A stretch of 64,000 nucleotides of DNA, from assembly GCA_002633005.1 (NCBI GenBank), contig NMRA01000404.1:271394-335393 (forward strand), given 5' to 3'. Position 1 is the first letter of the stretch. Every line of letters starts with the position of its first letter. The translations under genes and the position numbers were made by a program. Below are positions 21,239 to 63,879 of the stretch, in pieces. This DNA comes from Phoronis australis (lineage: Eukaryota > Animalia > Phoronida). The notes beneath the pieces are model-generated. The model did not search any database, was not told the DNA's origin, and saw nothing but the letters and a program-made list of their open reading frames with translations.

Positions 21239-21639
21239 CAGGAAGAGATAACCCGATCAGGTAGAACTGCGTTTCAAGTCACACCATAGGCACTTGACGG
21301 CTCGCGTCGTATGACGTCGTATGACGTAGGCGATACAAGCCTCATTTGCATATGTTAGTGACACCTGTTGGTTCAAAAAAGAGGATCATGCCCGAGTACA
21401 TGCCTGGGAAGAGGCATCTTTTGGAAGGGTAAAACATGTCGTGTTCAAAGCATCCCAGTGCCAGTAATATGCAGTCTTTGGGGACCAAAGTGGTGTCATT
21501 TTATAGCTAAAGAGTTAATCTTTCAAACATAATGCTTTGATTTCAGATAACTTGAACATTTACTTTTGAAATCATGTTTGAAGTCACGGGGAGCTAAAAT
21601 GCGCTAAAACAGTTGTCCCTTCCTGGTTATCTCTTCCTG
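21239..21639. mobile_element. Non-autonomous DNA transposon (MITE), P-superfamily-like
   Basis: Perfect 15-bp TIR caggaagagataacc/ggttatctcttcctg with a 7-bp TSD ctactat (21232-21238, 21640-21646). CA termini plus a 7-bp TSD are P-like (inference). Confidence 0.8.
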
Positions 21640-23599
21640 CTACTATTGACATGTTTCCCTGCTAGATCTGCAAGTGTTCTACTGGAGTTTTCTGATTAGC
21701 GTCCTATCTGCAAACATGCCTAGCGTATAAAAGGAAATTATACCAGAATACCCCTAGTGCGTGCATGTGGATTAAGAGCTTTCCATTGATAAACTAAGCT
21801 TTAGTTAAAAACCATAGTTTCCTGCAAAATAGAGTAACTTTAAAATTTTTCAACACAGACACAAGTTGTTATTTACAAGTTTTTTTTTTTAATTTTTTTA
21901 GCACACTGGCTCAAAGGAGCAACTATGATAAGAAACCACGCCTTGGCTTTTAGCAACGAGTTCACTATTGCTTTCAGTAATCAGGACTTGATTTAGATCG
22001 CTTGCAACAATAAAATCGGCCTTGTTTCGTTCCCTACAAGTGCTAAAAATGATATTATGCTGAGACGAATTATTGCCCAGTTCACACCGACGTTTTCACG
22101 GCGGGCTAGTGTCTGTTGTCTAGGCGACACTAAGTGGCCGCGGGGAATTACTACAGTAACTGTAACCAATTTCAGGTTAAAATTATAAAAACGCGATGAC
22201 GTCGCTTTGGAAGAGTAAATACCCCAATGGGGAAAGATAACTTGTTTTTTTATAATCATCCGTTTTTGCAACACCAGACATAACAGAGGGGCCGGTATGA
22301 CTTATTTTTTCACGGAGTTAAAATTGTGTTTCATACTGCTAATACAGATTAACGAAATAACATTCACTGATAAGATAAGCGCCTCCCAGCAGGCCCGTTT
22401 GGAATCTTCACTCCTTTGTTCGAGGCCCCTGTCTTACAACATAACAGTTTTTCGTCGAAGCGATTTTCACGCATTAGGCCAACAAAACTGTAACCAGAAT
22501 GCAAACTGCAAGCGTTGAGAAGTCTCTGATGTGTTCCTCTAAACACAGGGATACGACGCTTGCCGCTGAAATGAGTAAAAAATCACGTTCTGTTTCTCTA
22601 CGAAAAAGTACCTTTTCTGACAAAGTTTCCTACGAAGTTGTGGGTTTTCCGACGAAAGTCCTGAAAAAAAATTTACACGGGGAGGTCCAAATAATTAGGG
22701 TCCATTTTCTCCACTAGACCACGAAAGTAACTATTATGTTTATTTGTATAATATAGCTATTTCTTAATTGTCTCTCAAGTTTGTTTTACAAGTCATAATT
22801 GTGATAGCTGCACGCAAAGCCACAAGGTGGTGATTAACATATTAATTTACTTGATTGCTGGACAAAAATACGCAACCACTTGCTGCCGGCTTCGGTATTT
22901 GGGAATACTATTCAACCCAGAAAGTGAAGAGCGTGGTAATGTTGTTAAAACCCCCAGATGCTTGGTGTACAGCTAAACAGTAGTGAAATGTCCTTACAAA
23001 CTTAACAAAAACACGATCATGCTGCTAAAATAGCAAATACGGACACCGGCAAATAAATAATTCATAAATAATAAGTGCAATAAAAATAGGGCCTACTTAG
23101 CTGTTGTTATAACGCAACTGACACGTGCTGAAATAGATTGAAATCAATAGTCCTTCAAGCATAGCATTTAACCATGACTTTTGATTTAAGAAAAGTTAAA
23201 CATTTAAACTAGAAGTTAGAACCAGTGAAAGGACGGCGTTTTTCATGAATGCGGAAATGTTCTTCCTCTATAGCTCGATAGGCGTGGTGGGCCTCAACCA
23301 CCAAACGTGATTGTTAAATTCATCATTTTCCCCACTTGTGTATTTTTCACAATTTGTTTGAAATTGATGCCACTATGTCGCCTGGGAGTAATATACATGG
23401 TCCTAGGTTTTCACCGAGTAAAACATTTTCATTGTCCTTACACTCCACTATGAATGGTGTGATTTTACCTCCAGACACGTTGCACCATGACTGTTCTATG
23501 TATACTGTTTCTCCAATGGGGCTAAACATATTCTACACTTCCCCAGCTAATCACCTTGTTTATCGCTGTTTACATTTTTCAAAAAATCTTGTTTACCAT

Positions 23600-23845
23600 C
23601 ACGGCGATTTCAGGTAAACCGCTCTGTCCGATGAACCGCTGTAATTTCTTGTTTGCCTCAGGCAAACAGCACCTGATGACGTCACACAGTCCCGTACGCA
23701 CCTTCCGTGACTATTGGGGGTTGACTGTCAGTGTTGGCTCTGCGTGTCCCACGTTTGTACTGTAAATTTATTACCGTCAGTGTCGGTTTTCACGTGATAG
23801 TAGTTTCATGTCGCTGTTGAAGATGTTTCACTAATCGATACTAAA
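23600..23845 (+). promoter_or_regulatory. Putative promoter/5' UTR for EFCAB14 module A
   Basis: Locally CpG-rich, with a perfect CRE palindrome TGACGTCA at 23677-23684. Confidence 0.45.
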
Positions 23846-23988
23846 ATGGACGAGAAAGACGATCTTGCGTTCAAGCCCCACGAAAACGGATCTACTCAGC
23901 TGCTGCTGCAATCGGGCAGTGACAGCGATCAAGTGGAACAGTTTTCTCTGCCTGGCATATCCAAAGGCAAGAAGATTCGACACTCGAA
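23846..23988 (+). CDS. EFCAB14: EFCAB14 alternative first exon A1 (MDEKDDLAFKPHENGSTQLLLQSGSDSDQVEQFSLPGISKGKKIRHSK)
   Basis: aaaATGG start context, open frame, strong gtaagt donor in phase 2, CpG-rich surroundings. Confidence 0.7.
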
Positions 23989-26900
23989 GTAAGTAGTACT
24001 TTTATTTATTTCATAGTTTCTTGTCGTCAAGTAGAATTTGCTTGTATTCGAGTGATAATTGATTCAGACTCGAGTGAAATTTCCTTGACCAGTGGCTGTC
24101 CCATTTCCAGTCAATGCCCGACCATAGTACTTGAATTGTACCCTCAAACACAAGGGTCGACCAGCCTACCTGTTGTGCGCAGTATATCACAAGTCCGGGT
24201 CCGTCGTAGCTGTTGCATGTTATGCCTGACTGGTGAACCGTGAGAAAAACTTCCACATCACTTGAAATCGTTTAGCTTAATAACACTGTTCAGTTTGTTT
24301 TTTAGTTTTTAAATTTGAAACTTATTCAAAGTTGGGAACCCAAATTTGGGGAAAATGCAAGGTGAAACGGTGAAACTTTCAGATATCCATGACAGTGTTA
24401 ATATTAAAATATATATTGTCTGCACCATGTAAACAATTGTTTAATTATTTTATTATACACCTTTAAAAAGGTCTATAGATGACTATTACATTGGGACATC
24501 TTATTTCACCCAATGGTGAATGTTACATTGTGATAAATTAATTTTGCAATGTTCTTGAAAATCTGATCATGAAATAAAGAAAGTTAATCCTTCTGTTTTT
24601 TGGCAAAAATAAACTAATTCATTCTCATTTTATCTTATTTTGAAGATGGCAATTTTTGTTGCTCAATGTAACTATAAACTTGCCTTCCATTTTAAGAGTG
24701 ACTCCATATAAAAACCAACAGGTAGAGTCTATACCCAAAATCACCGATTTTTTTGAAACTTAGCACATGAGTTTGGTTTGTTGAGAAGTAGAAAAATCTC
24801 ACTTTTTAAGAATTTTCATTCATTATTTTTCTTTTTATGACCTGTACCTCCATTTTGCAACAAAATTGGGCGTCGAAGTAGGCATGTTTGAATGCATTTT
24901 ACTAGCATGTATGATACGGTCAAAACAAATAAATAATACCAATTGAAAGGGCAATGGCTGAATAATTTAATGGCATAACTTTCAAAATCCATTTTTAAAT
25001 TGATACGTTTTGAATTTGTGAGGCAAAAACGGCTATTTTTCAGGTTTTCACTGAAGCCATTTTCGGCCACATTTGGCACTCTGTAGCAGCCATAACGCAC
25101 CTTTCCTGAAATTGACTTTATAATAATTTGTTAAGTCATTCCTAACCTGTTCATAATCTAAAATAAAAAATCTTGCCTCTAATNNNNNNNNNNNNNNNNN
25201 NNNNNNNNNNNNNNNNNNNNNNNNNNNNNNNNNNNNNNNNNNNNNNNNNNNNNNNNNNNNNNNNNNNNNNNNNNNNNNNNNNNNNNNNNNNNNNNNNNNN
25301 NNNNNTTTTGTGATTTTTTGAAGAATAAACTTTAAAGGAACATGAAGGCCCATCGACACCGTCCGCCATTTTGTCTTTTTAAAATGCACTTGCTTGTCTC
25401 AAAACCAGTTATTACAAATATCAATTCTTACTCGTTTAATCTTAAAGGCATTTATTTCCATTCAAAAGTTCTACAGAGTGTTTAAATTAACGTGATTATG
25501 TAAAAGAAATGAAAGAATACGAGAGGGTTACATGAACATTTTTTATAAATCCTCAAGCTTTAAACCTCAACTGACTCCCTCAGTGGGCAAAGGTCATCGG
25601 GTTCAGTTTCGATACTAGCCGCGTAATAAACCCGGAAAACATCTTGTTTTCATTTGAAAGACTTTAGACTTGGTTTCTATAACTATTTAAAGCAGACTTC
25701 TTGCCTAAAAGTTTGTTCAAATGGTCTGTAAACTCTGCTCGTCATTTACAAACTATGAAAATAGACAGTTTTGCAAGACAATTTTCACTAAAGTGCAAAG
25801 TTGAGGCAAGATTTTTTATTGCTCAGTCATCAAGACTAACTCCTTAACTGTATGTTCAAAACGTCACATAAGGCTACAAGGTGTTTTATGGCAGTAAGAA
25901 GGTCACAAAAATGGCCACTAAAATTAGCCCCAAAAAGTGGTCTGTGGATTATCTCCCCTGTCTAGCACAAAACTGTTAGATTTTAATAAATGGCACAGAA
26001 TTATGCACAGTATACGTTGATTATTTCAGCCACCAAAATATAGCTTTTGATCTATTTTGTATGTTACTCATTTTTGTTGCTGAAAACATGCGATTTTTGA
26101 GACAGCTAATTTTCCCAATTGTGCCAATTTGTGTTATCATGCTCCAGCGGCGAAATTAGGGGTCATTGAGTGCACAAAATTTGGCATTTGAGTTTTTGTT
26201 AGGATACCTACCCATGTACAAAAAATGAAGTTGTTTTAAATTTTGACGTATAGACTGATTTTTGAAAATCTACTGGTTTTTATATGGACTGCCTCTTAAA
26301 AGCCAACATTTGGCTTGAGTCACGTTTGAAGTTGGCCTCAACATGCACCTCAGTCAAATTGGCTTCGTGCCAAGCGTGACCTCAACAAACCCAAAAATCC
26401 TTCTCATCAGGGTGGCAAACTGCTTTAAAAATCCTTTCAGAACATGTTTCACATTTTTTTACTTTGCTTTCTATGATCCGAAAATTTGATTTTGCACTTT
26501 GTAGGAAGGCTGATTACAGTCGACTAGTGGACACGGGATACAAGACTAGTAAATCATGTTGTACCCTGGGAAGATTTGTGCTGGTCTTGTTGTTTGCCAT
26601 CATTTTCCTGTGTCTGGCCGGAGTAGTCCTCCTGTATTACAGTCTATTGGTGGAGATGAATGGACTCAAGCTGAAGATGGACAACTTGAACTCAGATATT
26701 CACTTGGGTAAACATGGTATGTTCTCATCAGAGGCTTCTTCACACCTCCTCTAACTACATGGGTTGTCATTATTTTCAGTTACTATGGTATTTATCCAAT
26801 TATTTCACGCAGAAATAACTGTCAAAATGATCATTTTCCCATTTATCTTTGGTTGGTTAACTTTTTGGAAATTATGGAAACTTGAGCAAATGTTGTTTTA

Positions 26901-29900
26901 TGACATCATGGCTAGAGCACTATGCATCTACACACTGCACATACTGGCACTAATAGACAAAAATATTCTAAATCTTTATATTTGTGAGAAATTTAACAAT
27001 TTAGAATTTTGGTTGCCGGTCATATTGTTTGCTAAATAAATAAAAATTATTGTAACATTTCTTAAACTGAAACTTGATCACTTGATCGCCAATTCCTTAT
27101 CTCTGTGATTGCTTGGTTAAATTAGTTAAAACATGTAAATATGAAGTAGGTTAAAATTGCCTAATGTTCTTATTAAACAGTTTTGTGGCAAAAATGCTCT
27201 GCCGCGAATCACTGAACCATGTCCAGTAGTGCTGGGTAATAACACTGCATGACAAGGCTATGTAAGCCCTCAAGGTATGTCATTAGTGCAAAGAACACCT
27301 ATGTGCAGAATTTTTATTTTCACATTTACAAATTGTCAATGAATACAACTGAACTTTGTTTGGCATAGATTATGTTAAAATAACATTGTAATTTAGTTCC
27401 TGTTATCCTTTAGTATAGTTAGGGGAATGCGAATACATCTTTAATTTAAGAAATAACTGGTTCATGACAAAAAGTGTAAACAGTGCTACTTTATTAGTTT
27501 GGCAAACATGTTTTGTAAACCGCCAAAATCAAAACAACAATTTTACAGACAGTAATTCAAAATTTACTGATTCGGTAGTGACACCTAACAGTCATTTTGA
27601 AAACAACACATTCTTAAGATGCTTTCCCACAGTGGTATCCCAAATGACATTATTGTAAATGCCCTTTCCCATACAATTAACTTCACTACTACCGAAGCTT
27701 CAATGTTAACTGTGGTTAACTGTAAAGTTAAGTGTCAGTGTTCCTAACAGCTTCTGAATTATAGTTCAGCAAATTTATCGCAGGGCTGCGCTAATGTGAC
27801 TGTCAAGGCCATATGACCAGTCATGTGACCAGTCATATGACCAGTCATATGGCCTTGCTGTTTTTGACAGTGCTTGCCATCAGAAGTGGCAAGGAATTCT
27901 CCCTCTCCCAAGATCAAAACTAAAACATCAACCTCACAAGGCAGCCAACGGTTGCCACATTGGGACAATGACGATGTACTAAAAATGACATATTAAAAAG
28001 TTTTACTCTTGAGCACGTTAACTGAGCTGATCCAAACAAAGGCGGTATGGCAAGGCACTAACTTGTGCATACACTTCACGTTCAATGATTTTTTAATTTA
28101 AAGAATCCAGAAAATACATGGATAAATTGAAACAGAATGCCTATAACACCAAAATAATATTCATCAGAACAAAATATTTCCAAATGGTAACCAGTCACCA
28201 CCTGCTGTTGGCAAACACAGGCATTGTTTCGGTGCAACACCAAAGCTTTGGTCAATTTGAACAACAGGTAATGCCCTTTAAGTCAGATGTGGTACATGTA
28301 GCCTATCTCTGCCTCTTTGTTACACAGGCTGTAAAACTGACGTTAACAACAAGGGCTGAAAGTCATTTGTCACTGGATTTGTAAATTTTTACATTTAACA
28401 TTTATGGCCTGCTTGATGGGATGTTGGTAGTTGTTTGATTTCAATATCGGGGTCAAGAGTTTGGTGAGAAATCGACCCATTTTTATAGGGAATGTGTGAA
28501 TTAACATTTACATGAATTAGTTGCCCCTTCTGTTGTGTTTTTGCTGAGATCAATACACCTGCAAAATGTGATCTTAGAGAACATTTTCTGTATGCATCAA
28601 GATTGTGTACTTTTGAGCATAACTGATATAATTAACAACATGCAATTAAAGTGGTTCTAATTAGCTTTTAACAATTCCAGCCTTTAATTTAAATTATTGA
28701 TGGATGCCTCTCAGCCAATTGAACTGACCATTGATCTTGCAAACAAATGTCATTCAAAATCAAATATTTGTCCTAGTTTTTCTTCCTTTGGTATTTTCGT
28801 TGTGCTATTGATTTCTTGTTGTTTGGTCTCTGGTCAATTTATCCTGGAGTATTTCTGCATTTATCTCAGACTGTCCAATTACCAAGTGTAGTATAAAAAC
28901 AATGCACATTTTTCTTAGTTTGCTTAACACAGTTGTGTCTGGACATTTTATATCATGATTCATTGCACCACTGTTAAAAATAATATTAGTTTCATGAACA
29001 GGATAATCTACTTGCAACATAGTTTCATGGTAGTTTTGTGTCGCAGTTGTTTTTTTTTTTTGAAATGCTAAACTGGATTTCCTTTTATTCCACTGCCTGA
29101 ATAACCAAGATCCACACTAGAGCAGATATCGTTAGGAAACCAACAGTGCATGTTTCCAGCCAAATTGCAGCTCAAGTGAAGCCATTGTAGGTGACCAGCT
29201 TTACTCTCATTCTGCTGCAGTGTGTTCAATGTCATGTGAAGGTAGTGATGGAACAGGCGACAGTAGTTGGCCATATTACTTAAATTTTCATTTTGTGTTA
29301 AATTAGTAAGGGTCGTTATCAGGAGAAGAAATTCTGAAACCATCCTCAGCATGGAATCGGATCTGAACCCTGGCGGTCACTGTCTATTGCTTTGCTGGCG
29401 GAGATAAAAGTCCACTCCATAATTCCAGACTATTTTTGAAGCCTATTTAATTTAACTGGTAAAGTTGCTGGCTTAGTTTCTGCAAATGTCTGACTGACAA
29501 ATGGCAAAAATTGTCTATTTGTTATAAAATTGCAAAAACACAACAGATTTTGTTGTTTTATTGCTCTTTTCAAAGCGAATATTTTCAAATATATTCCATC
29601 CTTGAAAAAAAGATAACGTGGCTTTCTTATGTTGAAAATGTGTATTGTTACGGGGTTCTGTTATAGCTAGTTTTTAAATTAAAACTTTCCATGCAATTCA
29701 GCAGTGATAATGAGTCAATGGGGTGTTTATAACACGATCTCTCAGCTGGGCGTTGACAAACTTTCAAATTTACTGGTGCATTGCGAAGAACTCTACGCAT
29801 GGCTCGTTATATATTGTTCCCGACGCCTCTCTTGTGAGGGTATCTATCAAAGAAACTTGACATGATGCTCTTGACAAGCCTTGTAAAGTGAAATGTTATT

Positions 29901-32900
29901 GGCCACTGTAAATGAATAAATTTATTTGCTATTTACGTTTATTTTGTCCCAGTGGTGTGGTAGATGCATTTTACTCACTCAGATGATTTCAGCGTCGTAC
30001 ATTTTGTAAACCGTGTACACGATGTTTATTAGGCTTTGTTAATTTTTGTATTAACATAAACCTGTTCCGGGATTTATAACGGCCAATAGAAACCTGCGGT
30101 ACAAACTACACTCGGAACTAGTTAAAGTTTCCTTCGTGGACTTGGGACACTTGGCGAGAGGAACTGCGCTGTTTTACTTTTTTTAAGTACGCAAGTGAAC
30201 CAATCTTTGAAGTTAGATGTATACGTGACAGCGAATTCATGGTGGAACCCAACGGTGCGGCTGAAGTGGAATATGTGCAAATGAAAAAGATGAAAAAACG
30301 TCGTGAACTTGACGCACTCGTCACGAACGGTAAAGCCAAAATGGGCATTGGGAAACGAAAGAAGAAAGGTCACCATGAACTGCTACAGAATCAAGACTCG
30401 GGATCGTCAGAAATTGACGAATTTAGTATAGACACGGAAAAGGCATTTGTTAGAAAGTATGAGTGAGCTGTCATTGTTTTCAGTTACTGTCAAATGTGTT
30501 CGGAGAGTTGAAGCCTGACTAATAAGGCCATATTTTATGATTGTTTTTATCAGGTGTTTATGGGCCATTAGATAATGTTGCCATTGGGATGTAGGTTTTA
30601 TTAGCATTTTGACCTGAGAAGTTAATGTTTTGTTTCAATAGGCAAATAGGAAGAACTTCATTAATTATGATTCTGTTTGTTTTCATTTGAAAATTAAACC
30701 ATTGGCTTGTAATTTCAGTTTAAAACATAATTCAATAAAGTTAAATGATGATATGAAATGGCAAAAATATGAAACTTCAAAGTTGAGCGTTTAGAATTTT
30801 TGGTTCTTGTGTTTTAGAGAATGATATTAGGAGATGTAAATGATTTTTGTCACTGATTATCTGTGTGAGACTGGTCGGTAAATAGCAACTGGTACTTTTT
30901 AACAAATGCCGTTATCGTTGTTGATGCGTTGTCGTTCTTGTAGCCGGGGCCGGAGGACAGAATCGAAAGTGTGCTCAAGATGTATAACTGTAGTCACCTG
31001 TTTGTTATCAGTGCTGTGCATCATAGCATGTGCAGGTCTTGCCTGGGTTCACATTGAACTTAAAAAGGACCTCGACTCTGTCCGTGTAAAACTTTCAAAA
31101 GGTATGAACGGCTACTTAGCTGCCTATTTTCCTATAAATATTCTTCATTGCTGGTGTTTAGTGCATTTGTAGGGTCAAGTTGACAGAATGAAGTCGAGAG
31201 TCTTCATTCTCACTAAGTCTTCCAGTGATGGCTTATGCCAGCTGTCTTGAGCGAACTTTTATGATCTCGCATGTATTATTGGTAGTCACATGTTAGATGT
31301 CTTGACACGAATGTATGTCATTTAGGTTCACTGATTACATTGGGTTACACTTGTAACAACCAATTTCAGGCAGAGATATGGAGCTTAAGAGAGGGGATGA
31401 AACCATAGTTCAAACTGTCATTATTTTACATTGAACACAAACTTGTCTTTAACTCTCTGCATAAATCAACTCTTTTCTTGAGCTTTTTAAGGGAACCTAT
31501 CTTTCTTAAAGTATTGTTTTGGATAAGTGGATGGGAAAGTTGTTTCAGTGTCTTTTAGTAGGCCAAAATTAGGTTTGGTCTCCTCTGTTTCAACTGAGCA
31601 CTAGTCATGGTCACTGGTTCAGTAGGAGGTGAACATAAAGCGCCACCTATGTTTTCCTTTGTGTAACACTTGGTTGCATCTTCATTTACATTTTGCCTGC
31701 TGGGATAAAAAAGAGTGTGAGTGGTCTGATTTGATGCGTCAGACTAGTGCACGCCTTCTGGTTGGACTCATTGCATAAAACAGCTGAGCTAAAAACACGA
31801 AAGCCCTGTTATCAATCAATGTGTTTTTCGTGAATGAAGTTTTCAAGTCTGCCCATCTCCTTTTAGAAAAGGGACAAACTTTTCCATTTGTTGCCATGTT
31901 GTAGGCGTGTAATGGTGTCCTGCAACAGTTTACTCCTTAGCTCATTAAAAGCTGGTCAAGCCTCTACCATGTGTTTAATGGTTTCAACGCCAATGTGGAT
32001 GCTCATATTTGAGTTTTTATCTTTGAAATATTTTTGAGAAAAGTTAACTGGTAAGTAAAATAAATTCAGTTATAAGTAAAGTGTCGAAAGGTAGTTCTTA
32101 ATGATCATTCCATTTTTCTTTCTCATCTGAAGAGTGATTCCTGCTGTTTGATTCTTGACCTCTGTTTCCTTTTTAGTGGAGACCAAAACCAAAGGGACTG
32201 TCATTGATGACAAGGAGCTTCAAAAACAAGTGAAGACTGTTTTTCAGTCACTAAGTAAGTAAACCTGTTAGGAATAGTGGTGCTTGGTATTAGTTACTAG
32301 TTGTGTGGAGACCTTTGAGTAAAATGTGTTTTCCTGTAGAATGTGAGTGTATCTGGTATTCTGTTAAAAAATCATTTTTGTTCTCAAACTGTGTGCATCA
32401 AGTCTCAATATTCTGTGCACCCAATAAACTGGCACGTATTGTAAACTCATCCAAAAATATTGGAATTTGAACTTTTAAGGCTTAACACCATTGGTTTCTC
32501 CTGTGGTATTGAATCACCCATACTGTTTTAAAACCATTTCAGGACATCTCGGAATAAACAGCCTGGCAATTATGGGCACGTTTTTCATGAAAGGCCCAGT
32601 GTCCAGTTGCAAGAAACAGTCCCAAATTGGGACACAACTACATATCTTAAATCTGTTGTGTATTTGTGGACTTCTGAAAACACTTATTGTCTTTTCTTGT
32701 GTTATTTTAGTTTTACTACTAAAAGTCAGTTTTTGAATTTCCTACAAAACCAGGGTGAACTCTAGATGGAATTATCAATGTTATTGTAAAAAGAATTGAA
32801 GGAAGGGGTTCAATTTTTTGTTATATTTTAGAAAACGCAGCGTTTCCCACTCCTTTTTGACCCTGCCACTTATAAATCATGCCCAAAGTGGCCGCCACAC

Positions 32901-35900
32901 ATCTATTCGTGACGGGGAAAACTTCACTGCCACCCAAAAGTCGCTAGTAAAAGTAATCGGTTGTAATAATGAATACGCACAAGTCACATGGCTACTTTCA
33001 TCGTTTGCGGATCGAATGGGAGAAATAATACATAATCGGATTTTGAATTTGCCCCCGTTAAACACTATCATTATATTTCCTTTCGTAACTTGCATTCGCT
33101 TGGTGACCGCAATTCACCTCTGCCTGGTTATCTGACAATGCACAGCAACTAAATACGGTCGGATACCAGGTAATGACCTTGACACTAGTTTTCTAAAATT
33201 GTGAAGCGCTATTGAAGTGCATGGAGAAACGATAAGCTTTCTTCATTTCATTGTGTCCGCGTTTACAAAAAAAATTGTACAGCAGTGTGACTTAAATTGC
33301 ACCAGACATTTAACGGTTTAATGAACCATAACCCAGCGCCAAAATGACTATATTGAATAGAAATCAATCTCAGATATGTCTGCATGGACTGGATTATACA
33401 TCATCTGCATAACTAATGCCGATTTATGTTGAGCAAGATCATTTCAACAAAAGTTTCATTATACAAATTGGTTTATTACACCTAAAAAGTTCTAATTTTT
33501 CCGTTCTATGTACATCACGTCATTGATGATGGTCACGTTAAGGTCGTGTGTATGATGAGTAACTTGTAGAATACACCAGTCTGCACCAATTGTTTAGTTT
33601 TCTCCTTTCAAAACCTCACAGTAAAGATAAAGTGACGGAAAAATATTCATCTGTTAGAAAAGAATGCAAAATATTTGTGGATTTTAGTTGAATCTCAGTT
33701 TGGGACTGTTTCATTATACTCGCCACAGGATTCTCTAACCCAAATATGACTCAAACTGAATGTCCTGTTTTAAAACATTGTGTACTTCTCTGCTGATACT
33801 CCAGTTAAGGCATCCACTCTTATTGAACTTGTCAGCAAGGTATAAAAAACTGAGTACCATAATTATGTAACGGTATGTCAAACTGTGCACCATAATGATG
33901 TAATGGTATGTCAAACTGAGTACCATAATGATGTAATGGTATGCCAAACTGAGTACCATAATGATGTAATGGTATGTCAAACTGAGTACCATAATGATGT
34001 ATTGGTATGTCAAACTGAGTACCATATGATGTAATGCATTAATTATTCATGTTTCCGTAAAGCAAAAATAAGCAGAAAAAAAACTCAGGCATTTCAAAGA
34101 TAGCTGAAGTTTTCTAGATATAGCTCGGGACTTTTTGAACATAGGTCAGGTGTTTGTTTGAACACCTGTAGGATGAACAGTAATGAATTGTCAGTTACAC
34201 TGTGTATGTTAGCACTCTGTTCCTTACAGGTCCCGTTTCTCAGTTGCAAATATAAAAATACGACTTCTGCGTGACTGCATTACCGAGGATACTCAAGTCC
34301 TCGCTTTTTTCTGTATTGATCGTTGTTTGGTTGATCAACTCGCTCACATCTAAAAGTGATTGGTCTCTGGAGATTACTCAAGTTGTTTAAATACTAATCT
34401 AATTCTATGCCATGCTGCCACTCTGTCTGTTCAATAGATGGATCTCTTCCAACTTAATAAAGGACTTAACCACTGTGTTGTTTGTAATGGGCAAGATACT
34501 CATCTGTCCATCTACAAAACATGACTTGAATCATAAGATATGTTTGCAGTTTTTGTGCCGTGTGTGTCGTGGTATGTAATCTTGTGCCGTGTGTGTCTTG
34601 GTATGTAATCTCAGTTCTGCATTACAGCCAAAGCTGGAGCACCGTTTGATTTAGAAAAAATGAAGAAGTCTTTTGATGAAGGGGTCAAGGAGGCAACAAA
34701 AGATCTTACTAAAAAGGTAACAAGATAAAACAAATCTGTACGCATAGTGAAGCATGTTTCTTCTAAACTATCCTTGAGAAATTAAGCAGATGGCTGACAT
34801 TCCTAAATGTTGTTGAATTTTCCCACTAGGTGACGTGAAAATAATGCATTTTATGTTGGACTTAGTTGGTGATTACCCTCATGTCTATTGGTGGCGTCTG
34901 TTTGATACAAGAGCACTCCCTCACTGAGTCACAGGACATCTAAATAATGTGAGATAATTCTAACTACTTCCTTCTGGAAAGTTGGCATGAACCAAACTTC
35001 AATATGCACTTTACATTCCTAAAGACATTGTTTACCATGTACATCTTGGTTGTTGCTATTAGTCTGCTTTATTTACCTAATTCCAAGATCCTCAGAGACG
35101 TGTCATTTCCATCAATGATGTTTACTGCTAGTGTCGGAAACTCTGGTCACATGGGATCTCTTTTGCCTGATGACATTGTCAGTACTTTCATTCTATGTGG
35201 ATGGCGCCACCTACCCTTAATTGTCAACATCTTTTCGGTCTGTATGGAAAGAAGGATGTCTGCCCTGCCTTTGCTGTATATGGTGAAAGGGGACACATAT
35301 TTCTTTATGTGTACATCAGTAGCTAGTTACAGAGTAAATAGTGTTTCGGGGGATCTCCCGAAATTTGTTACTAATAAATTTGTCTTTCTCTTGCTGCTGT
35401 TTACAGTATCGTGCTTAAGATGGTGCCGCACTTTAGTTTTGGCGTTTGTTGACAGGTGACTGAGCTAGAAGGTGAGGTAGAACGTCTGAAGGAGAGTGTT
35501 AAGTCGGCCCCTGCACTTAAAGCATTACCTGACAAAGTGGACACCTTGACTCAGGTATGGTGGAATAGTTGTAATGGGACTGTGTAATAGATGTAAATGG
35601 ACTGTGTAATGGACTGTGTAATGGATGTAATTGGACTGTGTAATGGATGTAATTGGACTGTGTAATGGATGTAAATGGACTGTGTAATAGATGTAAATGG
35701 ACTGTGTAATTGATGTAAATGGACTGTGTAGTGGATGTAAATGGACTGTGTATTGAATGTAAATGGACTGTGTAGTGGATGTAAATGGACTGTGTATTGG
35801 ATGTAAATGGACTGTGTAATGGATGTAAATGGACTGTGTAATTGATGTAAATGGACTGTGTATTGGATGTAAATGGACTGTGTATTGAATGTAAATGGAC

Positions 35901-38900
35901 TGTGTAATGGATGTAAATGGACTGTGTAATATATGTATGGGGACTGTTGTAATTGGGCTGTGTAATAGTTGTAATAGCAAATTTTCAAATAATAGCCTGT
36001 CGATTTGTCATGTGGGACCGGTTGTTAATAGCTTCAAGAGAACGAGGTGGCAATTTCACTTTTGTTTAAAACACACCATGTCTTGTACCGTGCATTGTAA
36101 GAGGGTGTTTTTGCAAAGTCCGGTATGTTTCCTCCTATGTCACTTGCTTCAAAGAAGAAGTACCTCTTGGTACAGCCAGGTGGCAGTAAGAGTCACTGAT
36201 CCTACATGGTCAGGCCTCGTAGGTTCTTGAGAGTCTCTCATTGGACAGTATTTTTCTGAAAGTCTCTCACTAGCCTGTGCAATAGTTGTAGTTGAACTTT
36301 GTTTGCAATTTGAAAATGCATTAGCTGTAACAACACCGTGTAGTAGTTGTGAAAGGCCTGGACTGCAGGCAGTCTCTTTGACACATGTATCCTGTCAACG
36401 TTCTGATTGCTTTTGCCAGGATACTTTTTCAGGAGTTTCATCAAAAGCTGTAAAAAGTTGTGTTTGGTCGTTTGTGCTGCCCCAAACTTGCTCTCACTGG
36501 TATGTTGTCTTGTTCTCGTATTTTTGTGCTTCTTGGTTACATGAGGATATCAGACCAGATGTCGTGACAGAAAATGCACATTGTCTTGTTTGTAGAGTGT
36601 TGCCACGGTGAAAGGTGACCTTCGCACTGTGTCCGACCTAGTTAAGAGTGTGAGTGACAAAGAGGCACAGCTTGAGAAGAACAGCAAAGTGATCCAACAG
36701 AGACTAGCAGTTATGGAGAGTAGGGGTGTGTCTGTGGACAAGAAACAAAATGCTGAAACAACCGTAGGGGAGGGAAATGACAAGGTCAGTATAGTGTAGC
36801 CTGAGTGTGTTTGCACAGGATTCTCCTGGGTCATGTTACATATTGTAGTTCTGACCGTACCGTTGTATGATCTTGAAAATGGTGGAGAGGAACATGAACC
36901 TTGTTAGCGGTGTTGCATTCAAGCTGTGCGTTCTCCATCCAAATTTTCCTGCTTGTGTTTGTCCCTGGTCCATTTCATCTTGATGTTCTGACTGGCTCAG
37001 ATGACCGAGAACAAGTCTGGTGAGACATGGCCTTAAGTGTGAAGTTAGTCAAATGCTGTTTTAGCTAATCGCACACATGCATATCAATTTCCCCAAGATA
37101 AGGAAATAGAAGGTGACTAATTTTGAGTCCAAGATTATAAAAGCCACGGACATTCTTGGAACATGATGCAAAAATATTTTGGAGTGACTGATAGCTGTAC
37201 TGAGACTTTATTATGTGCTACAAAGGCTACAAAGTAACCAGCGGTCACTATTTAACAGTTGGTTGTTCGTGACCCACAAACGTTCCCAGACACTTCAACC
37301 AATAGTGTTGTTGAGAAGAGTTGCTGCTACAGTACTTAATGACCACTTACCGACACATTACCTTATCTGTTCTAGAACTTGACTGTACTAAGTACTGTGC
37401 AAGCTTCTCTCAAGACAATACAAGATGCAGTTAGTAGTAATCGGGTAAGTCTTCCTATTCCTGTTGTCAGATATTAAAAAGCCTTGATAGAGAGAATTTG
37501 GAATTGGTGAGAAGTGTGCCTTTGATGTCATGAATTTCCCTTCTGGTCACATGTTGTGTCAGCCTTGTTGTATCAGTTGTATGCCTGTCTTTAGTGTCAG
37601 TTGTCACACATATGTCCTGATCGGGTTATAAACAAAATTGTCTTGGCTGAGCAGACCTCAACTCTTCATCAAGGATCTCAACTGGCTGAATGTTTAGTAC
37701 CCCCCTGGTAGCTTTAGGCCTGATATGTCCCAGTTATCTCTGGTGTTTGTATGTCCATACACTCTTATCATTTAGATCCTATTAAATACATACGAATCAT
37801 ATTCTTACGCAACGTGTTCATTAACTCCTTAAAATGAACTGCATGCTAGTAAAAATCAGAAATAACAATCTTTGCTGCAACCTTTGATATGGCTGGCCCA
37901 CGTTTGACAAAATGATCCAAAAGTGTAATTGTCTTTTTTTTACACTTTGTGTTTTGTAAGTAAAGCTCAACAATGGACATTTCAGTTTCACCTGGAACAT
38001 CTCGACAATGTGACCGAGGGTTTAACCTTGAGGTTGGAGTTACTGGAACAGCAGGGTTCACACAACACGGCTACAGACCAGAGTACAGTACCTGACTGGG
38101 CCAGTATTGTCAACACAGCTGTAGAGAAGGCGGTGAGTGTACAGGTGAAACCTTTCACTAGATGCGAGCTAGGGTTAAATGTTGTATTAAAGTTGCACTT
38201 AGCCAACACATAACCGCCTCCACTGTAACACAAACTTAGTGGTGCTTCAATCCCCTTTCCGAAGGCAAAGACAAAGCCAAGCTCTTTCACATATATATTA
38301 TTGAGAATCTTGTAATTAGTTACGAAAATTTAACCGATTTCCTTAGTGCTTCAAAAGATGTCTCACTTCCAACTATAATTAGCGATATAATGACCCTTAC
38401 TTTATAAGTTGAAGAATGGCTTTTTTTTCTTGTCAGTTGAGTTTCAATTTCCACTTTTTGCCCCGTGTCCCTCATGCACTCATACATTGTCTTGTTTCAG
38501 TTGGAGAAAGTGTCCAACAAGAGCATTCCTATTTCTCAGTCTGTTAACAGTTCTACGGCCGTCTCTGGTGACGCTCTCAATCAACTGACTGTAAACAATT
38601 CTACGGCCGTCTCTAGTGACGCTCTCAATCAACTGACACAACATATGGCTAACATCTCATCACAACTTGTGATATACAAGTCAGAGGCAGATCAGGTCAG
38701 CCTGAGGCAATGTTGTCTTCATCAGTTTTCAGTCAAAACACACACACCTTTAGGCTACATTGTCAACCTCTCTGTTCAGACTGTAATCTATGATGTCATT
38801 ATAGTGAAAATGAGCACCCTCTGTTGTTTCTCATCTTGAATGTGTTGTTGAATGGGTCCAATGTCTGCTGACAGCTGTTTTCGTTCGTACATCTAATTCA

Positions 38901-41900
38901 ACTTCTGATTAAAATTGTATATGTATTTTAACTTTTTTTTTCTAAATGCATGTTTTTAACGCTATGCCATGTGCCTTTTCAGATGAGACATGACTTCAAC
39001 CTGGCACACTCCAGCCAGGACTCCAGTGTATTTAATGCCACTCAATCAGAGCTTATTACTAAGATACTTTATGGAACATTGGAGGACTACAAAAATAAAT
39101 ACAATATGGATGTGCAGGTAAACACTGTTACACCAGATTGGAGTGTTATGTGCTAGTCAGATATTACTGAGATTGATTTGTTAAAGATAGACCTCACTTC
39201 CCCTTAATCGATTTCATTTGTGGTTAGCATTCAGTATGGAGACAGTGTGCATTTTGTGTGCATTCAGTATTCAGCTAGTAGGCATTGCGTATACATTCAC
39301 TGTGCATTCAGTAAGTATTTTGTCAGCAGAGTTACTTGTATGTTACAGGCTATCAACGAGTCTGTGCAGTCACTGGGTTCTGCTTTGCAAACCCTTACAG
39401 TACGTGTGACCTCCAATAATGCCCAGATAATAGCATTGGCTACCACAATACAACAACTGGCTCAGTCATCCGTCCACAATGTTTTAATGCCTGGCCCGGC
39501 CCTGGTGACCGGTGAGTAAACTAGTCAATCTCTGTCTTCAGGGGGTGTGGTCAGTTGCATGACGAAGTCCAACTTAGTGGACTTAACAAAGTCACCAGAC
39601 TAACATGGGGTGTCCCTGTCAAGGTTACAGGAAGCTTTGCAGGGTCCCTATCTGGGAGCTTTCTCTAATACAAGGGAAACTGTCCTCATCAACATAATTC
39701 TTGACATTCTCGAGCACTTCTGGTTGGTTTGATCATCTTTAAAATTTCTTTTGTTAATGGCTCAATTTAGGGATTTAATTTCTATCGGTAAATGCTATAC
39801 ATATTTGAACCAAAATCTGGGGGCATCCCCTAACCTGAGAGGCTGTTTTGTGTAACTGGGTGCTGGTCTCATACATATTGTAATGGTGTGGTTTAAATGT
39901 TCTTATAAGGTGAATTGGGAAGAAATGAATTGTTGTTGGTGGTTTATCAAACATTGATGGAAGAGGGTGCTTCTTTCATGCATGGTTTAGTATTGGACCT
40001 GTAACAATATTGTTTTGGTTTTCAGGTTTTGTGTGTGTCTAACTGGCTAGTGACCTACTTAATTCAATAATGTTTTCACTAAACCTTTAAAGTTGCTATG
40101 ATCACACATTTCGCCTGATTTTTACCTTTTATTTAGATTACTTATGAAATCTGTCTAATATTATTTTGCCAAGCAATGGGTAAAAAATCGCGCATCATTT
40201 TTGCTCGTGTTTGGTGGATATTCTTGATTGTATTGATTGAATAGTGTTTGGTGGATATTCTTGATTGTATTGATTGAATAGTGTTTGGTGGATATTCTTG
40301 ATTGTATTGATTGAATTGTGAGCAACTGAAACAATACTGCACCACCAACTTGATTTTCAAAAAAAACAGGGCGAATCAACTACGCTTTTTAATCTTGCCT
40401 AACATTTTCAAATTTCCATTTCATGTCTCAAATCTTTTCTATTCAGTAGCAAAACAAACGACATGTAGTTCAGTTCTGGTCGTTCCCTTCCAAAATTCTG
40501 GAGAAGGTAGTTAGAAATGGTCGAGCTGTTGTAGTGAGTGAGTAGGGTGGACACGATGACACATATTGTTCAAAGAACATGTCTGATGATGCAGGTGAGA
40601 GCAGGGGTCCCATTACAGGTGAAGGTGATGATAACAAAACCCCTTATAATGAGGACAAGCATCAGGAGGTACACAATATCTCTGATGATAGCAATGGTCA
40701 CATAACAGATGTGAGTGATGACAACAAGACCTCATATAAGGGAAGGCATCAAGAGGTACACAGCAGTCCCTCTAGTGATAACAAGGGTCACATGACTGAT
40801 GTGAGTGATGACAAGTCCCCTTATGGTGACGGCAAGTACCAGGAGGAACAGTACAATCCTGCTAGTGGTAATATGGACATGGGAGAGAGTAGACCTGCAT
40901 ATACTGGTGGGGGTCTACAGCGTGAGAGGATAGGTATGCCTGAAGGAGAGGAGACAGACACACTGAACAAGGGAGAGACACCAGCATACTCTACTGGTGG
41001 TCTTCAGCGTGGGAGGCTAGGTATGTCTGAAGGAGAGGAGACAGGCACACTGAGCAGAGAGTCTGGTATGAAACACGAACATGGTGATGTGCAGACTGAA
41101 GCAGAGAGTGCTGATGATGTGCGGAACAAAAGCATTTGGCCTGAAGAAAACTATGGCACTTCACAGGACATTCCAGGTCACTCCCTAGGTGGCAGTGCAA
41201 GCAACAATAAAGTGGGAAAAGGTAGCCATCCTGTGAAAGGAGTCAAAGCCAATGGAGGGAAGTCCAAGCAGCAGATCAAGTTTCATGTGGGTGATCTGCA
41301 AGGGGTTCGTGGTAACTCTGAGGTAGATGAGAACCAGTTGAAGACTGGTGCTGGACATGTTGACAATATCGATTACGGTGTGGGGTATAAAGAGGAGAGG
41401 AAACAACAGAACTATGGCCTGCCCCCTGGTGACAGTGTCACGGATATGAAAGGGAAAGTAGGGCACGGTATGTTCAGTGATGATGATGATGACGTCACTG
41501 CGCAGCATCAGGCTGGAGGTGATCATGACCAGAATGGTGACTTGCACGCTGGCCGGGATTTTGGACAACTGGGTGAAAAAGACAGCTTGCCGGATGAACC
41601 TGTAGAAGCCAGCGACATTCCTGGTCAGTGGTTACATGCTTCAGCTGGCTTACTCTCTTACGACAGCTAGCTCCTCCTATGTGTGTATGCTGACAACTGT
41701 CTAGCCTGTCTCACAGCTGCTTGTCTTTATAACATCAACTCTATGAACACATCTTAACTGCATTGCATTAGTTCCTCCTTTGCTTTAAGCTTACAGTGGT
41801 TGCGGTGGAATTGTATCAGTCATATTGCAGTGTGCTCTCACGTGCTCGTGTTCTGTTTTATCCTATGAAGCTCATAGGGTCTCTGAGATCATCCCTACTC

Positions 41901-44793
41901 GCATTAATAAACAATAATTATGGATCACTACTCATGTACTGAAAAGGAAATGTCTTTAATAATACCTGTAAAATATTATATTATTTTACTTGATTATGGC
42001 AAAAGTTTGAAGTGTTCTTCATCATTGTTTACATTTTCCATCATCATTAAATTACAACTAGGACTAATATCATCGCATGTCACTAATGTTGACCAAGAAA
42101 GTAGCTAATTTTCCAATGATGATGATGAACTGTCACTTGATCAAATGTCACATGATCAGCTGTCACATGATCAGCTGTCACATGATCAGCTATCACATGA
42201 TCGGCTGTCACATGATTGACTGAAGAAAGCTACAATACATTGTGGCTGCTCAAGATTTACTTACTTACTGCAGTCAGACAGTGATGATGTGCTTGAAAAG
42301 TAGATTAAGGTTGTTCGCTAGCATGGATTTTAATAGCAAAATAGTGTTCTCTGACACATAAGAATTACCTGAAACTCCTCTTCTTTCTGTGACCTTGTAT
42401 TTTAATGTGTTAAACGTCAAGTTATTTTGGTTGTGATATGTTGTATGTTCAGCTGTGTCAATTATTCATTGTAGACCCGAATTCTGGTGCACAGGCGCCA
42501 TCTACAGAGGTAGGCATGAGTCAAGAAGTACCCAATGATGTCACAAAAAAACCCAATCCCAATGTGCCCACAACACTAGAGCCTGAGGGTACCACGAGGA
42601 AAATAGTCAAATTTTGGAGCTATGACACTCCACAAAGTAAGCCTCAGTCTCCCATGCTTGTGTAATTGTCTATGTTTACAGTGTTAGTTGTGTATGGGGA
42701 GGAGTTTTTACAAGAAAAGAATTGAGAGCCTTGTTTTGTATAACCAACATCAGTTTATGCTTGCGGCAAAACTCCTCGTTTATGGAACAGAAATAATGTA
42801 TGAATTCTATACCATAATTCAACATTCCAACCTCACCAACCAATCATTTAAGTGGACATCATTTTGTAGGACAGGGTAGTAAGCTCCCGAGCATTCTTTT
42901 GAAACTCGTAATTTTTTGACATCTTACTTTACGGGCAAGAAACTTGGTCTATGGCACACTACACAATTTGTTCCTATGTGGAAAGTCATTTACAGTTGAT
43001 TTGCACTGGATTTTCATCTGTCATTTACTGCTTCTCGTGTAGAGTTACATCAACACAACCTACCTTCTGTTGTAAGAAGTAAAATTCTTGGTTTCTTGTT
43101 CAGCGACATGTTTTTCAATGTATCTTAAACCGGCAATGTAGCGGTAGTTTTTATTTAGGGCTGTTCCAGCAAAATTTGTGTGGGGGACGGCAGTTGAAAT
43201 AAAAATTAATGGATGATTGTCTTCTGAAACAAATTGAAATTATGGGTGGCCCTTCTTCAAAGAAGAAAATTGATAAAACTAGGTGGTATTTTTTGTCCTG
43301 AAAATGTTGACAGACGGGTGAGTATTTTCAGAAAAGAACAATCTCAGTAGCATCTGAAATAATTCAAACTCAAAAAATCACTTGCCCCATGCCCAAAATT
43401 TCCCCAAAACAAGACAAGCCCGTGTTGCTAGTGTACAGAGTGCAATATGTACACTATGCCAATACTCAAGTCATGGGCAACTTGATTACAGCTACTTGTT
43501 GAACAGCCATATTAGAATGAAAATTAGTGCAACACTAAACTGGTGTTAAACATCTAATGAAATCTTATAAATTTTTTAATAAAAAAGAATGAATCAGATA
43601 GATGAGTTCCACTATTCACTTGCTGGTAACATTGTGGACCCTAGCTATATGGATAAACAATAACGGTCAGTTTTTGTTCAAGTCTAGACATTACTTTTAA
43701 TTTAAGCAAGGATCAAACTAAGACCTGTTTTGTATTGATACGCAGTCTAAATCAAGAGTTTGTTTACTGAAGGTGGGTACTTGGCAGCTAAGCATCATCT
43801 GATTCAGTTAACAAAACTCCTAAAAGGTGGCAGTCATAATGACACACAACCACTGTCGCCATCTGTGGAGAGTTCATATACTACAGTAATTTCTCACCAA
43901 TTTCTGACAAAATTATTGCAAAAAATTGACCTTTTATTTTCAAAAGCTAATATTGTTGTGAATGTCCATTTTTTCACAATTTTTCAAAATATTGACCGAT
44001 GGAAGCTACTGTGTAGAACTTGAAAATGATGAAACATTTACTATTTGGTGAATGTTATGAACATGAATTAAAGAGGGGTTTGTTTGCCAGATTGTGCCTT
44101 AAAATGATGAGATCTTAGCGTATATATGTATTTTATCCCAAAACGTTGGTGAACCTTGCAGAACTGGAGGTTGGTCACTCCCGCTGGGATAAAAATGGAG
44201 ACGGGAAAGTTGATCCCGCTGATCTGCCAGACTTCTTTGGACCTCACATCACAGAGGAAGATCTGGACAACTACAGGAAATTTGACATGGACAACGACGG
44301 TCTGCTCAACTTAGACGAAACGATGATGGCCGCGGGGTTCAATCCTCCGTCAAAACAAGAAGACACTACTGAGAAGTTGTCAGGTACTGTGTTCATGTGT
44401 TGAGGCAATGACGGTCCTAAATAATGGTGTTAATGCTAGAAACCAACTCGTTTTTATAAACTTCAAGTTAAAGTTAATTGCTTGGTGTGTATTTTTGTTT
44501 ATTCACTACATCGCTTCACCACAGGACCTTACAGTTGCAAGTCTAAGTTTTTATATAAGATTGCACAGTTCTGCACGGTAAAAACTGTTTTTTGTCACAG
44601 AAGCAACTCCAGTCTTGCTAGATCTTGCATAAACGGTCTTTACATTTGTCGTAAATGTAGTACACGGGGACTGTTACCTTACACATCTATGTCTACTTTT
44701 GAATTAGTCTTTCCTCAGTTTGGTTTTGCTACTCTGAATCATTGGTTTGATTATATTTCTATTACAGGTGTTCTCGATGAGGTCTCCACCTAG
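23846..44793 (+). CDS. EFCAB14: EF-hand calcium-binding domain-containing protein 14-like (type II TM, coiled coil, C-terminal EF-hand pair), with two alternative 5' modules
   Basis: Module A: 23846-23988 + 26505-26707. Module B: 30239-30456 (or 30462) + 30944-31101. Common exons: 32177-32254, 34628-34716, 35456-35554, 36596-36784, 37376-37444, 37986-38132, 38501-38695, 38983-39117, 39349-39511, [~40595-41623], 42475-42636, 44162-44383, 44768-44793. MKKRRELDAL, ACAGLAWVHIELKKDLD and KSAPALKALPDKVDTLTQSVAT resemble EFCAB14/KIAA0494; EF loops DKNGDGKVDPAD and DMDNDGLLNLDE. Confidence 0.85.
24696..26295. mobile_element. TTAA-flanked non-autonomous DNA transposon (Kolobok-like), spans the N gap
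   Basis: Left ttaa|gagtgactccatataaaaacca and right tggtttttatatggactgcctc|ttaa form an imperfect ~22-bp TIR. Confidence 0.65.
25184..25305. other. Assembly gap (N run)
   Basis: Run of N bases. Confidence 0.99.
26505..26707 (+). CDS. EFCAB14: EFCAB14 alternative TM exon A2
   Basis: tttgtag acceptor in phase 2 matches A1; SCC followed by hydrophobic FVLVLLFAIIFLCLAGVVLLYY and a heptad segment; donor G|gtaaac in phase 1. Confidence 0.7.
27090..27447 (+). repeat. Interspersed repeat (~360 bp); second copy at ~46283-46646
   Basis: Shared colinear blocks aattccttatctctgtgatt, ctgggtaataacactgcat, gcatagattatgtt, atacatctttaa. Confidence 0.75.
30239..30456 (+). CDS. EFCAB14: EFCAB14 canonical first exon B1
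   Basis: MKKMKKRRELDAL...KKKGHHELLQNQDSGSSEIDEF resembles the vertebrate EFCAB14 N-terminus; donor at 30457 or 30463, both phase 2. Confidence 0.85.
30944..31101 (+). CDS. EFCAB14: EFCAB14 canonical TM exon B2
   Basis: CSRCITVVTCLLSVLCIIACAGLAWVHIELKKDLD; ttgtag acceptor, gtatga donor. Confidence 0.88.
32177..32254 (+). CDS. EFCAB14: EFCAB14 first common exon (VETKTKGTVIDDKELQKQVKTVFQSL)
   Basis: Strong tttttag acceptor in phase 1, gtaagt donor. Confidence 0.8.
33848..34033. repeat. 33-bp minisatellite, ~5.5 copies
   Basis: aactgagtaccataatgatgtaatggtatgtca. Confidence 0.9.
34628..34716 (+). CDS. EFCAB14: EFCAB14 exon (KAGAPFDLEKMKKSFDEGVKEATKDLTKK)
   Basis: ttacag acceptor, gtaaca donor, phase 1 to 0. 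Confidence 0.78.
35456..35554 (+). CDS. EFCAB14: EFCAB14 coiled-coil exon (VTELEGEVERLKESVKSAPALKALPDKVDTLTQ)
   Basis: gacag acceptor, gtatgg donor; family-like KSA..L..LP..V..L motif. Confidence 0.82.
35575..35945. repeat. 22-bp minisatellite, ~17 copies
   Basis: ggactgtgtaatggatgtaaat. Confidence 0.92.
36596..36784 (+). CDS. EFCAB14: EFCAB14 coiled-coil exon (SVATVKGDL...)
   Basis: tttgtag acceptor, gtcagt donor, phase 0-0. Confidence 0.8.
37376..37444 (+). CDS. EFCAB14: EFCAB14 exon (NLTVLSTVQASLKTIQDAVSSNR)
   Basis: ttctag acceptor, gtaagt donor, 69 nt, open frame. Confidence 0.65.
37986..38132 (+). CDS. EFCAB14: EFCAB14 exon (FHLEHLDNVTEGLTLRLELLEQQ...)
   Basis: tttcag acceptor, gtgagt donor, phase 0-0. 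Confidence 0.75.
38501..38695 (+). CDS. EFCAB14: EFCAB14 exon with internal 48-bp duplication
   Basis: tttcag acceptor, gtcagc donor; VNSSTAVSGDALNQLT-like unit x2. Confidence 0.75.
38983..39117 (+). CDS. EFCAB14: EFCAB14 exon (MRHDFNL...NMDVQ)
   Basis: ttttcag acceptor, gtaaac donor. Confidence 0.72.
39349..39511 (+). CDS. EFCAB14: EFCAB14 exon (AINESVQSLGSALQTL...)
   Basis: ttacag acceptor, gtgagt donor in phase 1. Confidence 0.75.
40207..40315. repeat. ~37-bp tandem repeat x3
   Basis: gtgtttggtggatattcttgattgtattgattgaata. Confidence 0.85.
40595..41623 (+). CDS. Large Asp/Gly/His-rich low-complexity exon, probably an EFCAB14 cassette exon
   Basis: 363-aa ORF at 40579-41670; phase-1 donor G|gtcagt at 41624 fits the next exon. 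Acceptor uncertain (AG ending 40594 or 40618, both phase 1). Confidence 0.6.
42145..42217. repeat. 15-bp tandem repeat, ~5 copies
   Basis: tgtcacatgatcagc. Confidence 0.85.
42475..42636 (+). CDS. EFCAB14: EFCAB14 exon (DPNSGAQ...RKIVKFWSYDTPQ)
   Basis: ttgtag acceptor, gtaagc donor, phase 1-1. Confidence 0.75.
43158..43630. mobile_element. Truncated copy of the Harbinger-like MITE
   Basis: Left TIR gggctgttccagcaaaatttg; interior (cagagtgcaata...caagtcatgggcaacttgatt) is shared with the 58962 copy; no right TIR seen. Confidence 0.65.
44162..44383 (+). CDS. EFCAB14: EFCAB14 EF-hand pair exon
   Basis: WDKNGDGKVDPADL and FDMDNDGLLNLDE EF-hand loops; ttgcag acceptor, gtactg donor. Confidence 0.88.
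44768..44793 (+). CDS. EFCAB14: EFCAB14 terminal micro-exon (GVLDEVST*)
   Basis: attacag acceptor in phase 1, TAG stop. Confidence 0.65.

Positions 44794-58141: not shown

Positions 58142-63879
<5,738 letters not shown>

Follow-up and report, generated by a model that had tools for sequence, protein, structure and literature searches.

EFCAB14 of the phoronid Phoronis australis has two alternative beginnings. We describe a window of 64,000 nucleotides of genomic DNA (GenBank assembly GCA_002633005.1, contig NMRA01000404.1, positions 271,394 to 335,393, forward strand) in which this gene splices one of two 5' exon pairs onto a single common exon chain. We refer to the two pairs as "head A" (exons A1 and A2) and "head B" (exons B1 and B2). 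The two-head arrangement is real, expressed, and deeply conserved. We consider the following joint explanation of it probable: two separate promoters would choose between the heads; a type II membrane protein with a luminal coiled-coil/EF-hand body would thereby receive one of two cytosolic tails and membrane anchors; the two would stem from a single duplication that took place before protostomes and deuterostomes split; and the two tails would route the protein differently within the Golgi-endosome system.

The alternative start of EFCAB14 exchanges its whole cytosolic tail and anchor. To our knowledge, alternative starts conserved between protostomes and deuterostomes are uncommon. The two heads constitute a natural tail-swap experiment, and conserved differences between them indicate residues of importance in human EFCAB14. 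The arrangement also explains why databases contain dispersed isoforms under odd names and gene models fused in error. Among titles and abstract openings on EFCAB14 (KIAA0494; Drosophila CG3907), a body of literature with subscription journals mostly outside it, we found no account of gene structure or isoforms and no paper on function; supplements beyond this literature may hold localization data.

Two heads spliced onto one exon chain

The exons of the two heads, and the exon that both join, are as follows.

23732..23988, + strand: exon A1, first exon of head A; ATG at 23846; the 5' end is an RNA contig end
26505..26716, + strand: exon A2; joints 23988>26505 and 26716>32177
30178..30456, + strand: exon B1, first exon of head B; first ATG at 30239; the 5' end is an RNA contig end
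30944..31101, + strand: exon B2; placed by sequence and RNA joints
32177..32254, + strand: first common exon; its acceptor serves both heads (RNA joints)

Exon A1 encodes a dileucine (LL), a Ser/acidic cluster, F-S-L-P, and a basic run, and A2 encodes a Cys pair, a predicted transmembrane helix, and the start of a coiled coil. Exon B1 encodes the motif MKKRRELDAL, HELL, and a Ser/acidic cluster, and B2 encodes Cys-x-x-Cys, a Cys-rich predicted transmembrane helix, and again the start of the coiled coil. Both tails carry LL, a Ser/acidic cluster, a basic run, and Cys by the helix. The original prediction, made from the letters alone, had placed these five exons, with A1 and B1 ending in phase 2, A2 and B2 ending in phase 1, and both pairs open in frame into 32177. 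All of this holds, with GT/AG ends throughout, except for the position of the A2 donor. That donor had been put at 26707, and no joint 26707>32177 is listed; the RNA uses 26716, nine bases further on, with the frame unchanged.

RNA evidence comes from four runs with the same species label, from at most two studies, aligned to 21000-35600. X2, X3, and X4 are raw reads, with about one-fifth of each run sampled, and X1 consists of contigs; the threshold for listing a joint was 3 reads from 2 starts. The head A joints have 33/22/33 reads (23988>26505; order X2/X3/X4) and 28/27/30 reads (26716>32177), and those of head B have 17/22/16 reads (30456>30944) and 26/22/16 reads (31101>32177, a junction whose presence had been predicted). 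All four are also present in the X1 contigs. Head A accounts for 28/54, 27/49, and 30/46 of the reads at 32177 in the three raw-read runs, with both heads at similar levels in every one. These joints show two interchangeable tail-plus-anchor modules on a single body, as had been proposed, with each 5' unit spliced separately to the common downstream exons.

At the threshold given above, the joints listed in X1 to X4 within 21000-35600 include none that links A2 to B1 or A1 to B2, and none enters A1 or B1 from upstream. Serial inclusion of both heads and mixing of A1 with B2 were rejected for want of any such joint; likewise, no common upstream exon was seen to feed both alternatives, as one does in an arrangement of the Dscam type. 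The original prediction had argued against serial inclusion from the acceptor-like AG ending at 30187. That AG does lie in a different frame from B1 and runs into a TGA, but two weak AGs, at 30158 and 30212, would be open and in frame; serial inclusion is therefore excluded by the RNA rather than by the sequence.

RNA joints connect every exon from 32177 through the last exon at 44768. The remaining exons are as follows.

34628-34716, 35456-35554, 36596-36784, 37376-37444, + strand: first four of eight common coiled-coil exons; joints, frame
37986-38132, 38501-38695, 38983-39117, 39349-39511, + strand: last four of the eight; joints, frame
40595..41623, + strand: optional exon of 1029 bases, 343 low-complexity residues; included or skipped (RNA)
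42475..42636, + strand: common Pro/Thr-rich linker exon; joints, frame
44162..44383, + strand: exon for the EF-hand pair (Pfam EF-hand_6, E 3.5e-6, above cut-off); joints
44768..45820, + strand: last exon, with stop codon and 3' untranslated region; joints, frame

The eight common exons (34628..39511) encode a predicted luminal coiled-coil body. Inclusion of the optional exon differs among samples: in the three raw-read runs, 39511>40595 has 13/4/0 reads and 41623>42475 has 56/32/7, and the skipping joint 39511>42475 has 21/21/49. A Pfam scan gives no match for its 343 residues. The open frames comprise 642 or 985 amino acids with head A and 649 or 992 with head B. The probable 3' end lies at 45820, where reads pile up. 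Separately, sense reads run past exon 39349-39511 into the intron (39692-40290), and one run shows a pile-up of them at 40290; this may be a shorter form, stopping before the EF-hands.

The protein belongs to the EFCAB14 family. Exon B1 matches an EFCAB14-like protein of Haliotis rubra (E 1.6e-9, 54%), and the B isoform, which is similar to mollusc EFCAB14-like proteins across its length, matches database protein P0001 at 29% over 651 amino acids (E 2e-64). The conserved basic N-terminal motif, the resemblance of the tail to named EFCAB14, the single N-terminal helix, the long coiled coil, and the C-terminal EF-hand pair are all present. In the bodies of 12 homologues there are 109 N-glycosylation sequons, compared with 61 expected from shuffles, and basic residues lie before the predicted helix. 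Both features suit a type II orientation with the body in the lumen, which is the likely topology.

The same pair in other animals

Gene models in databases place A and B isoforms at one locus in nine other species: the molluscs Haliotis cracherodii, Liolophura sinensis, Mizuhopecten yessoensis, and Saccostrea echinata; the brachiopod Lingula anatina; the echinoderms Patiria miniata and Anneissia japonica; and the arthropods Chamberlinius hualienensis (a millipede) and Nilaparvata lugens (an insect). In species with both isoforms, the switch between A and B falls at an equivalent residue. Past it, the bodies are identical in eight of the nine species, the two Haliotis models diverging further down. 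Queries with B-type proteins returned many proteins that have an EFCAB14-like body and an A-like head; A isoforms sit under assorted names in automatic annotations. A-type heads also occur in Branchiostoma species (amphioxus), Owenia, Lineus, Dreissena, Candidula, and Solemya. Module A, which the original prediction would have given up had it proved both untranscribed and unconserved, is thus spliced in the window and present in other species' models. Three serial gene models, from Branchiostoma floridae (P0111), Nucella (P0015), and Lottia (P0055), have A before B, the order seen in the window; we read them as prediction artefacts that preserve the true gene order.

Isoform X4 of Haliotis cracherodii (P0226) joins a third first exon to the A2 part. 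This exon has a Tyr-x-x-Leu stretch, a Ser/acidic cluster, L-P-P, and a basic run in place of the LL version, and it is possibly a further duplicate of exon 1. Because it is attached to A2, the first intron of head A falls within the basic run, which is also its place in the window. Elsewhere in the protein, Branchiostoma EFCAB14 (P0061 and others) has a thyroglobulin type-1 domain following the EF-hands.

Head B was found in every one of the 15 members listed from a Drosophila cluster of 20, in three of three Styela records, and in the one Ciona record. Head A was not found in the vertebrate, tunicate, or Drosophila records retrieved, a weak absence since an A isoform could sit in another cluster. 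Among A-type proteins that could be named, none is from a vertebrate and none has a vertebrate-type best match. A word search with A heads says little on absence, being insensitive (it recovered 5 of its own 17 input proteins); all 19 of its matches are Branchiostoma isoforms or A-type proteins already known. A count of 22 "vertebrate-like" rows was left unused because the rows had been chosen by B-type motifs, making the count circular.

Two sets of heads were compared: 24 A and 86 B heads, trimmed 12 residues past the helix, for profiles, and 16 of each type for feature counts and a tree. Because the 16 rows of each type are related, a Fisher test on these counts was set aside. Both types have CK2-type sites after LL (13/16 A, 15/16 B). 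The types differ in several respects. First, L-P(P) follows the Ser/acidic cluster in 13 of 16 A heads vs 3 of 16 B heads. Second, B heads have their own very conserved basic N-terminal motif, the MKKRRELDAL type, which is absent from A, as the original prediction had it. Third, the helix span has a mean of 1.1 Cys in A and 3.0 in B, and A tails have 8.9 basic residues next to the membrane vs 5.0 in B tails. Fourth, the dileucine itself differs in context. Acidic dileucine signals have the consensus [DE]xxxL[LI]; in head A, an acidic residue often stands four places ahead of LL, and the shared LL fits the consensus in 13/24 A vs 7/79 B heads (79 after leaving out the 7 of 86 B heads without an LL-plus-acidic site). 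A difference in helix length between A and B was rejected, the mean uncharged spans being 24.3 and 24.4.

Among the signals that mark AP-1 cargo are dileucines and acidic clusters with CK2 sites, as stated in the excerpted text of PMC5584140. Human EFCAB14 is enriched 2.4-fold in Golgi immunopurification (Golgi-IP) in the part of the PMC10193996 supplement consulted; the PMC5807400 supplements have no EFCAB14 row. We favour the view that tails A and B would route the protein differently within the Golgi-endosome system, with ECE-1 (see below) as the model.

The main rival to different routing is equal function, with A and B being duplicates that do the same job and have been retained since two promoters cover different cell types or stages. 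The common architecture, the equal mean helix span, and the CK2-type sites of both heads suit such a reading, as does the fact that vertebrates and flies seem to manage on B alone. It is hard to square with the persistence of type-specific signatures across phyla (L-P(P) in A, the basic N-terminal motif and the extra helix Cys in B) and with the expression of both heads in the same three samples, and we think it improbable.

Origin of the heads and their starts

The A and B profiles align over 72 columns (probability 97.8, score 65.8; profile-profile E-values are pairwise), indicating that the heads are likely paralogous. Shuffling residues within the tail, helix, and post-helix segments never exceeded this score (0/60, maximum 28), and the tails alone gave 91.6, above 60 of 60 shuffles. 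Against an A profile from which it was left out, the window's A head reaches 55.7 bits, compared with 18.1 bits against the B profile; the window's B head scores 118.6 bits on the B profile. In a tree of 11 pairs and five more heads of each type, unrooted and with four long branches, one branch parts all A from all B heads (96/92; 96/94 for the shared core). The window's A head groups loosely with those of Lingula and Owenia (83/69). Approximately unbiased (AU) tests reject the deuterostome-only clade that separate protostome and deuterostome duplications would produce (p 0.002), and a grouping of window A with window B (p 0.003). A single duplication predating the protostome-deuterostome split is likely, being the simplest reading of the tree. 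The old duplication proposed from the window alone is supported by the nine same-locus pairs, the tree, and the profile match.

Head A might instead have been captured from the 5' end of a different gene for a type II membrane protein, its likeness to B reflecting convergence on common sorting signals. A-B identity is low, LL, acidic cluster, and helix together make up a generic design, herpesvirus Us9 in Pfam is a weak match to one A head (E 0.008), the ESM Atlas has unnamed arthropod proteins of 99-121 amino acids at 0.84-0.91, and a single-head outgroup was not found. We nevertheless judge capture very unlikely: the A-B match is collinear over its 72 columns, the heads share a two-exon layout and its phases (2, then 1), A lies in tandem immediately upstream of B, the best Pfam family covers at most 2 of 19 A rows, and all 19 matches of the A-head search were to Branchiostoma isoforms or known A-type proteins. 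Convergence as such is unlikely; we keep it in view because the shuffles include no unrelated type II control and because one A head resembles Us9. The unnamed small arthropod clusters of the Atlas, and one named match at 0.75, are leads only. No cnidarian or other outgroup homologue was identified.

Two regions are candidates for the promoters.

23500..23845, no strand assigned: probable promoter A; CpG-retaining, TGACGTCA at 23677, low antisense transcription upstream
29900..30238, no strand assigned: probable promoter B, within the A2 intron; CpG-retaining, CCAAT at 30083

The original prediction placed both first exons in CpG-retaining patches, and the observed/expected ratio is indeed 1.02 around the start of A and 1.21 around that of B, compared with 0.33-0.37 in gene bodies. 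This is supportive, but such patches are not specific to starts: the ratio reaches 0.97 in an upstream intergenic stretch and 1.06 at 32.9-33.6 kb. The latter patch (32900-33600), in the intron after the first common exon, has almost no RNA and is perhaps an enhancer or a young repeat. Upstream of A1, on the + strand up to 18464, lies a gene encoding a SARA C-terminal domain (ZFYVE9/ZFYVE16-like). Sense-strand RNA depth between this gene and A1 is 0-0.06 across 21974-23434, so head A is no continuation of its neighbour, and read-through from the SARA_C gene was rejected. Low antisense transcription, clearest in X4, is seen at 21974-23921, as for a bidirectional promoter. With starts placed by RNA contig ends, two separate promoters likely drive heads A and B; indirect support comes from the near-absent sense RNA upstream, the lack of any listed joint into A1 or B1, and the CpG patches. 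Least likely of all, and very improbable, is a single promoter region with B1 as an internal exon chosen by splicing from an unseen upstream or trans-spliced leader. In its favour, a strong acceptor-like T-run and AG end at 30187, and the A1 and B1 starts are known as contig ends and not as mapped starts. Against it, the RNA shows no listed joint leading into B1; the B contig already starts at 30178, before that AG, and agrees with the genome all the way to its end; and B1 has its own CpG-retaining patch with a CCAAT box.

Several points weigh against the joint explanation of separate promoters, one old duplication, and different routing: (i) the two heads co-occur at similar levels in the same samples, with no tissue split visible; (ii) the reads are short, so a head cannot be linked to distant exons such as the optional exon or the EF-hands; (iii) isoforms outside P. 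australis are database models; (iv) the null for the A-B match is made of segment shuffles and not of unrelated type II proteins, within-species A-B identity is 16-29% in the nine pairs, of 10, that aligned (the Nilaparvata pair, with 5 aligned columns, is excluded from this range), and single-sequence cross scores are about 16 bits; (v) the window's own A tail has no acidic residue at -4, a strict dileucine match anywhere in the tail occurs in 33/86 B vs 12/24 A heads (most of the B matches come from the B N-terminal motif), and the mean uncharged span is equal; and (vi) a HeLa organelle map puts human EFCAB14 in "Large Protein Complex", mostly organellar, in the portion of the PMC4959882 supplement seen. 

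A bolder version of the preferred explanation, which we offer as possible but tentative, is that the bilaterian ancestor had a two-address EFCAB14, with two promoter-selected heads binding different sorting machinery. The pair would then have been retained in molluscs, brachiopods, arthropods, echinoderms, and amphioxus, head A would have been lost in the tunicate-vertebrate line and in flies, and abalone would have added a third first exon on A2.

Neighbouring genes and related systems

Two further observations concern the rest of the window. At positions 16396-17718, parts of an exon end recur and an N is present, which may reflect a duplication in the assembly, and exons of a membralin (TMEM259-like) gene lie at 59855-62837 on the + strand.

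The type of mechanism, variable first exons, is already known, and there is no new molecular mechanism here. In GCNT2, as in UGT1 and the clustered protocadherins, tandem paralogous 5' units are separately spliced to constant exons, as in EFCAB14; each unit has its own promoter, and each GCNT2 variable exon contains an N-terminal transmembrane segment (excerpts of PMC1885805). The EFCAB14 heads are likewise tandem and, by profile match and tree, probably paralogous, with remote similarity. They differ from the GCNT2 type in that the unit comprises two exons and carries just the tail, the anchor, and the opening turns of the coiled coil; the copies number two and are ~16-29% alike, compared with the usual pattern of one large exon and highly similar copies; and the pair persists across molluscs, arthropods, and echinoderms. 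The Ugt1 and Gcnt2 clusters, by comparison, are called vertebrate-specific, with birth-and-death turnover (the same excerpts of PMC1885805).

The functional model is ECE-1, a type II protein whose isoforms a-d arise from alternative promoters that alter the cytosolic N-terminus and the location, at the surface or in endosomes (available text of PMC2567069). Drosophila Dscam, with exons 17.1/17.2 (TM1/TM2), also provides one protein with two alternative transmembrane/juxtamembrane exons; those exons are internal, mutually exclusive, and chosen by splicing, whereas the EFCAB14 units are first exons that include the whole cytosolic tail (available text of PMC7685093). The window's gene matches EFCAB14-like proteins in databases in its B head, its coiled-coil body, and its C-terminal EF-hand pair, and the vertebrate, tunicate, and Drosophila records retrieved show the B head alone. 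The features that appear new are the two-exon unit of tail plus anchor, how old it is, and the fact that the main model animals have apparently lost it.

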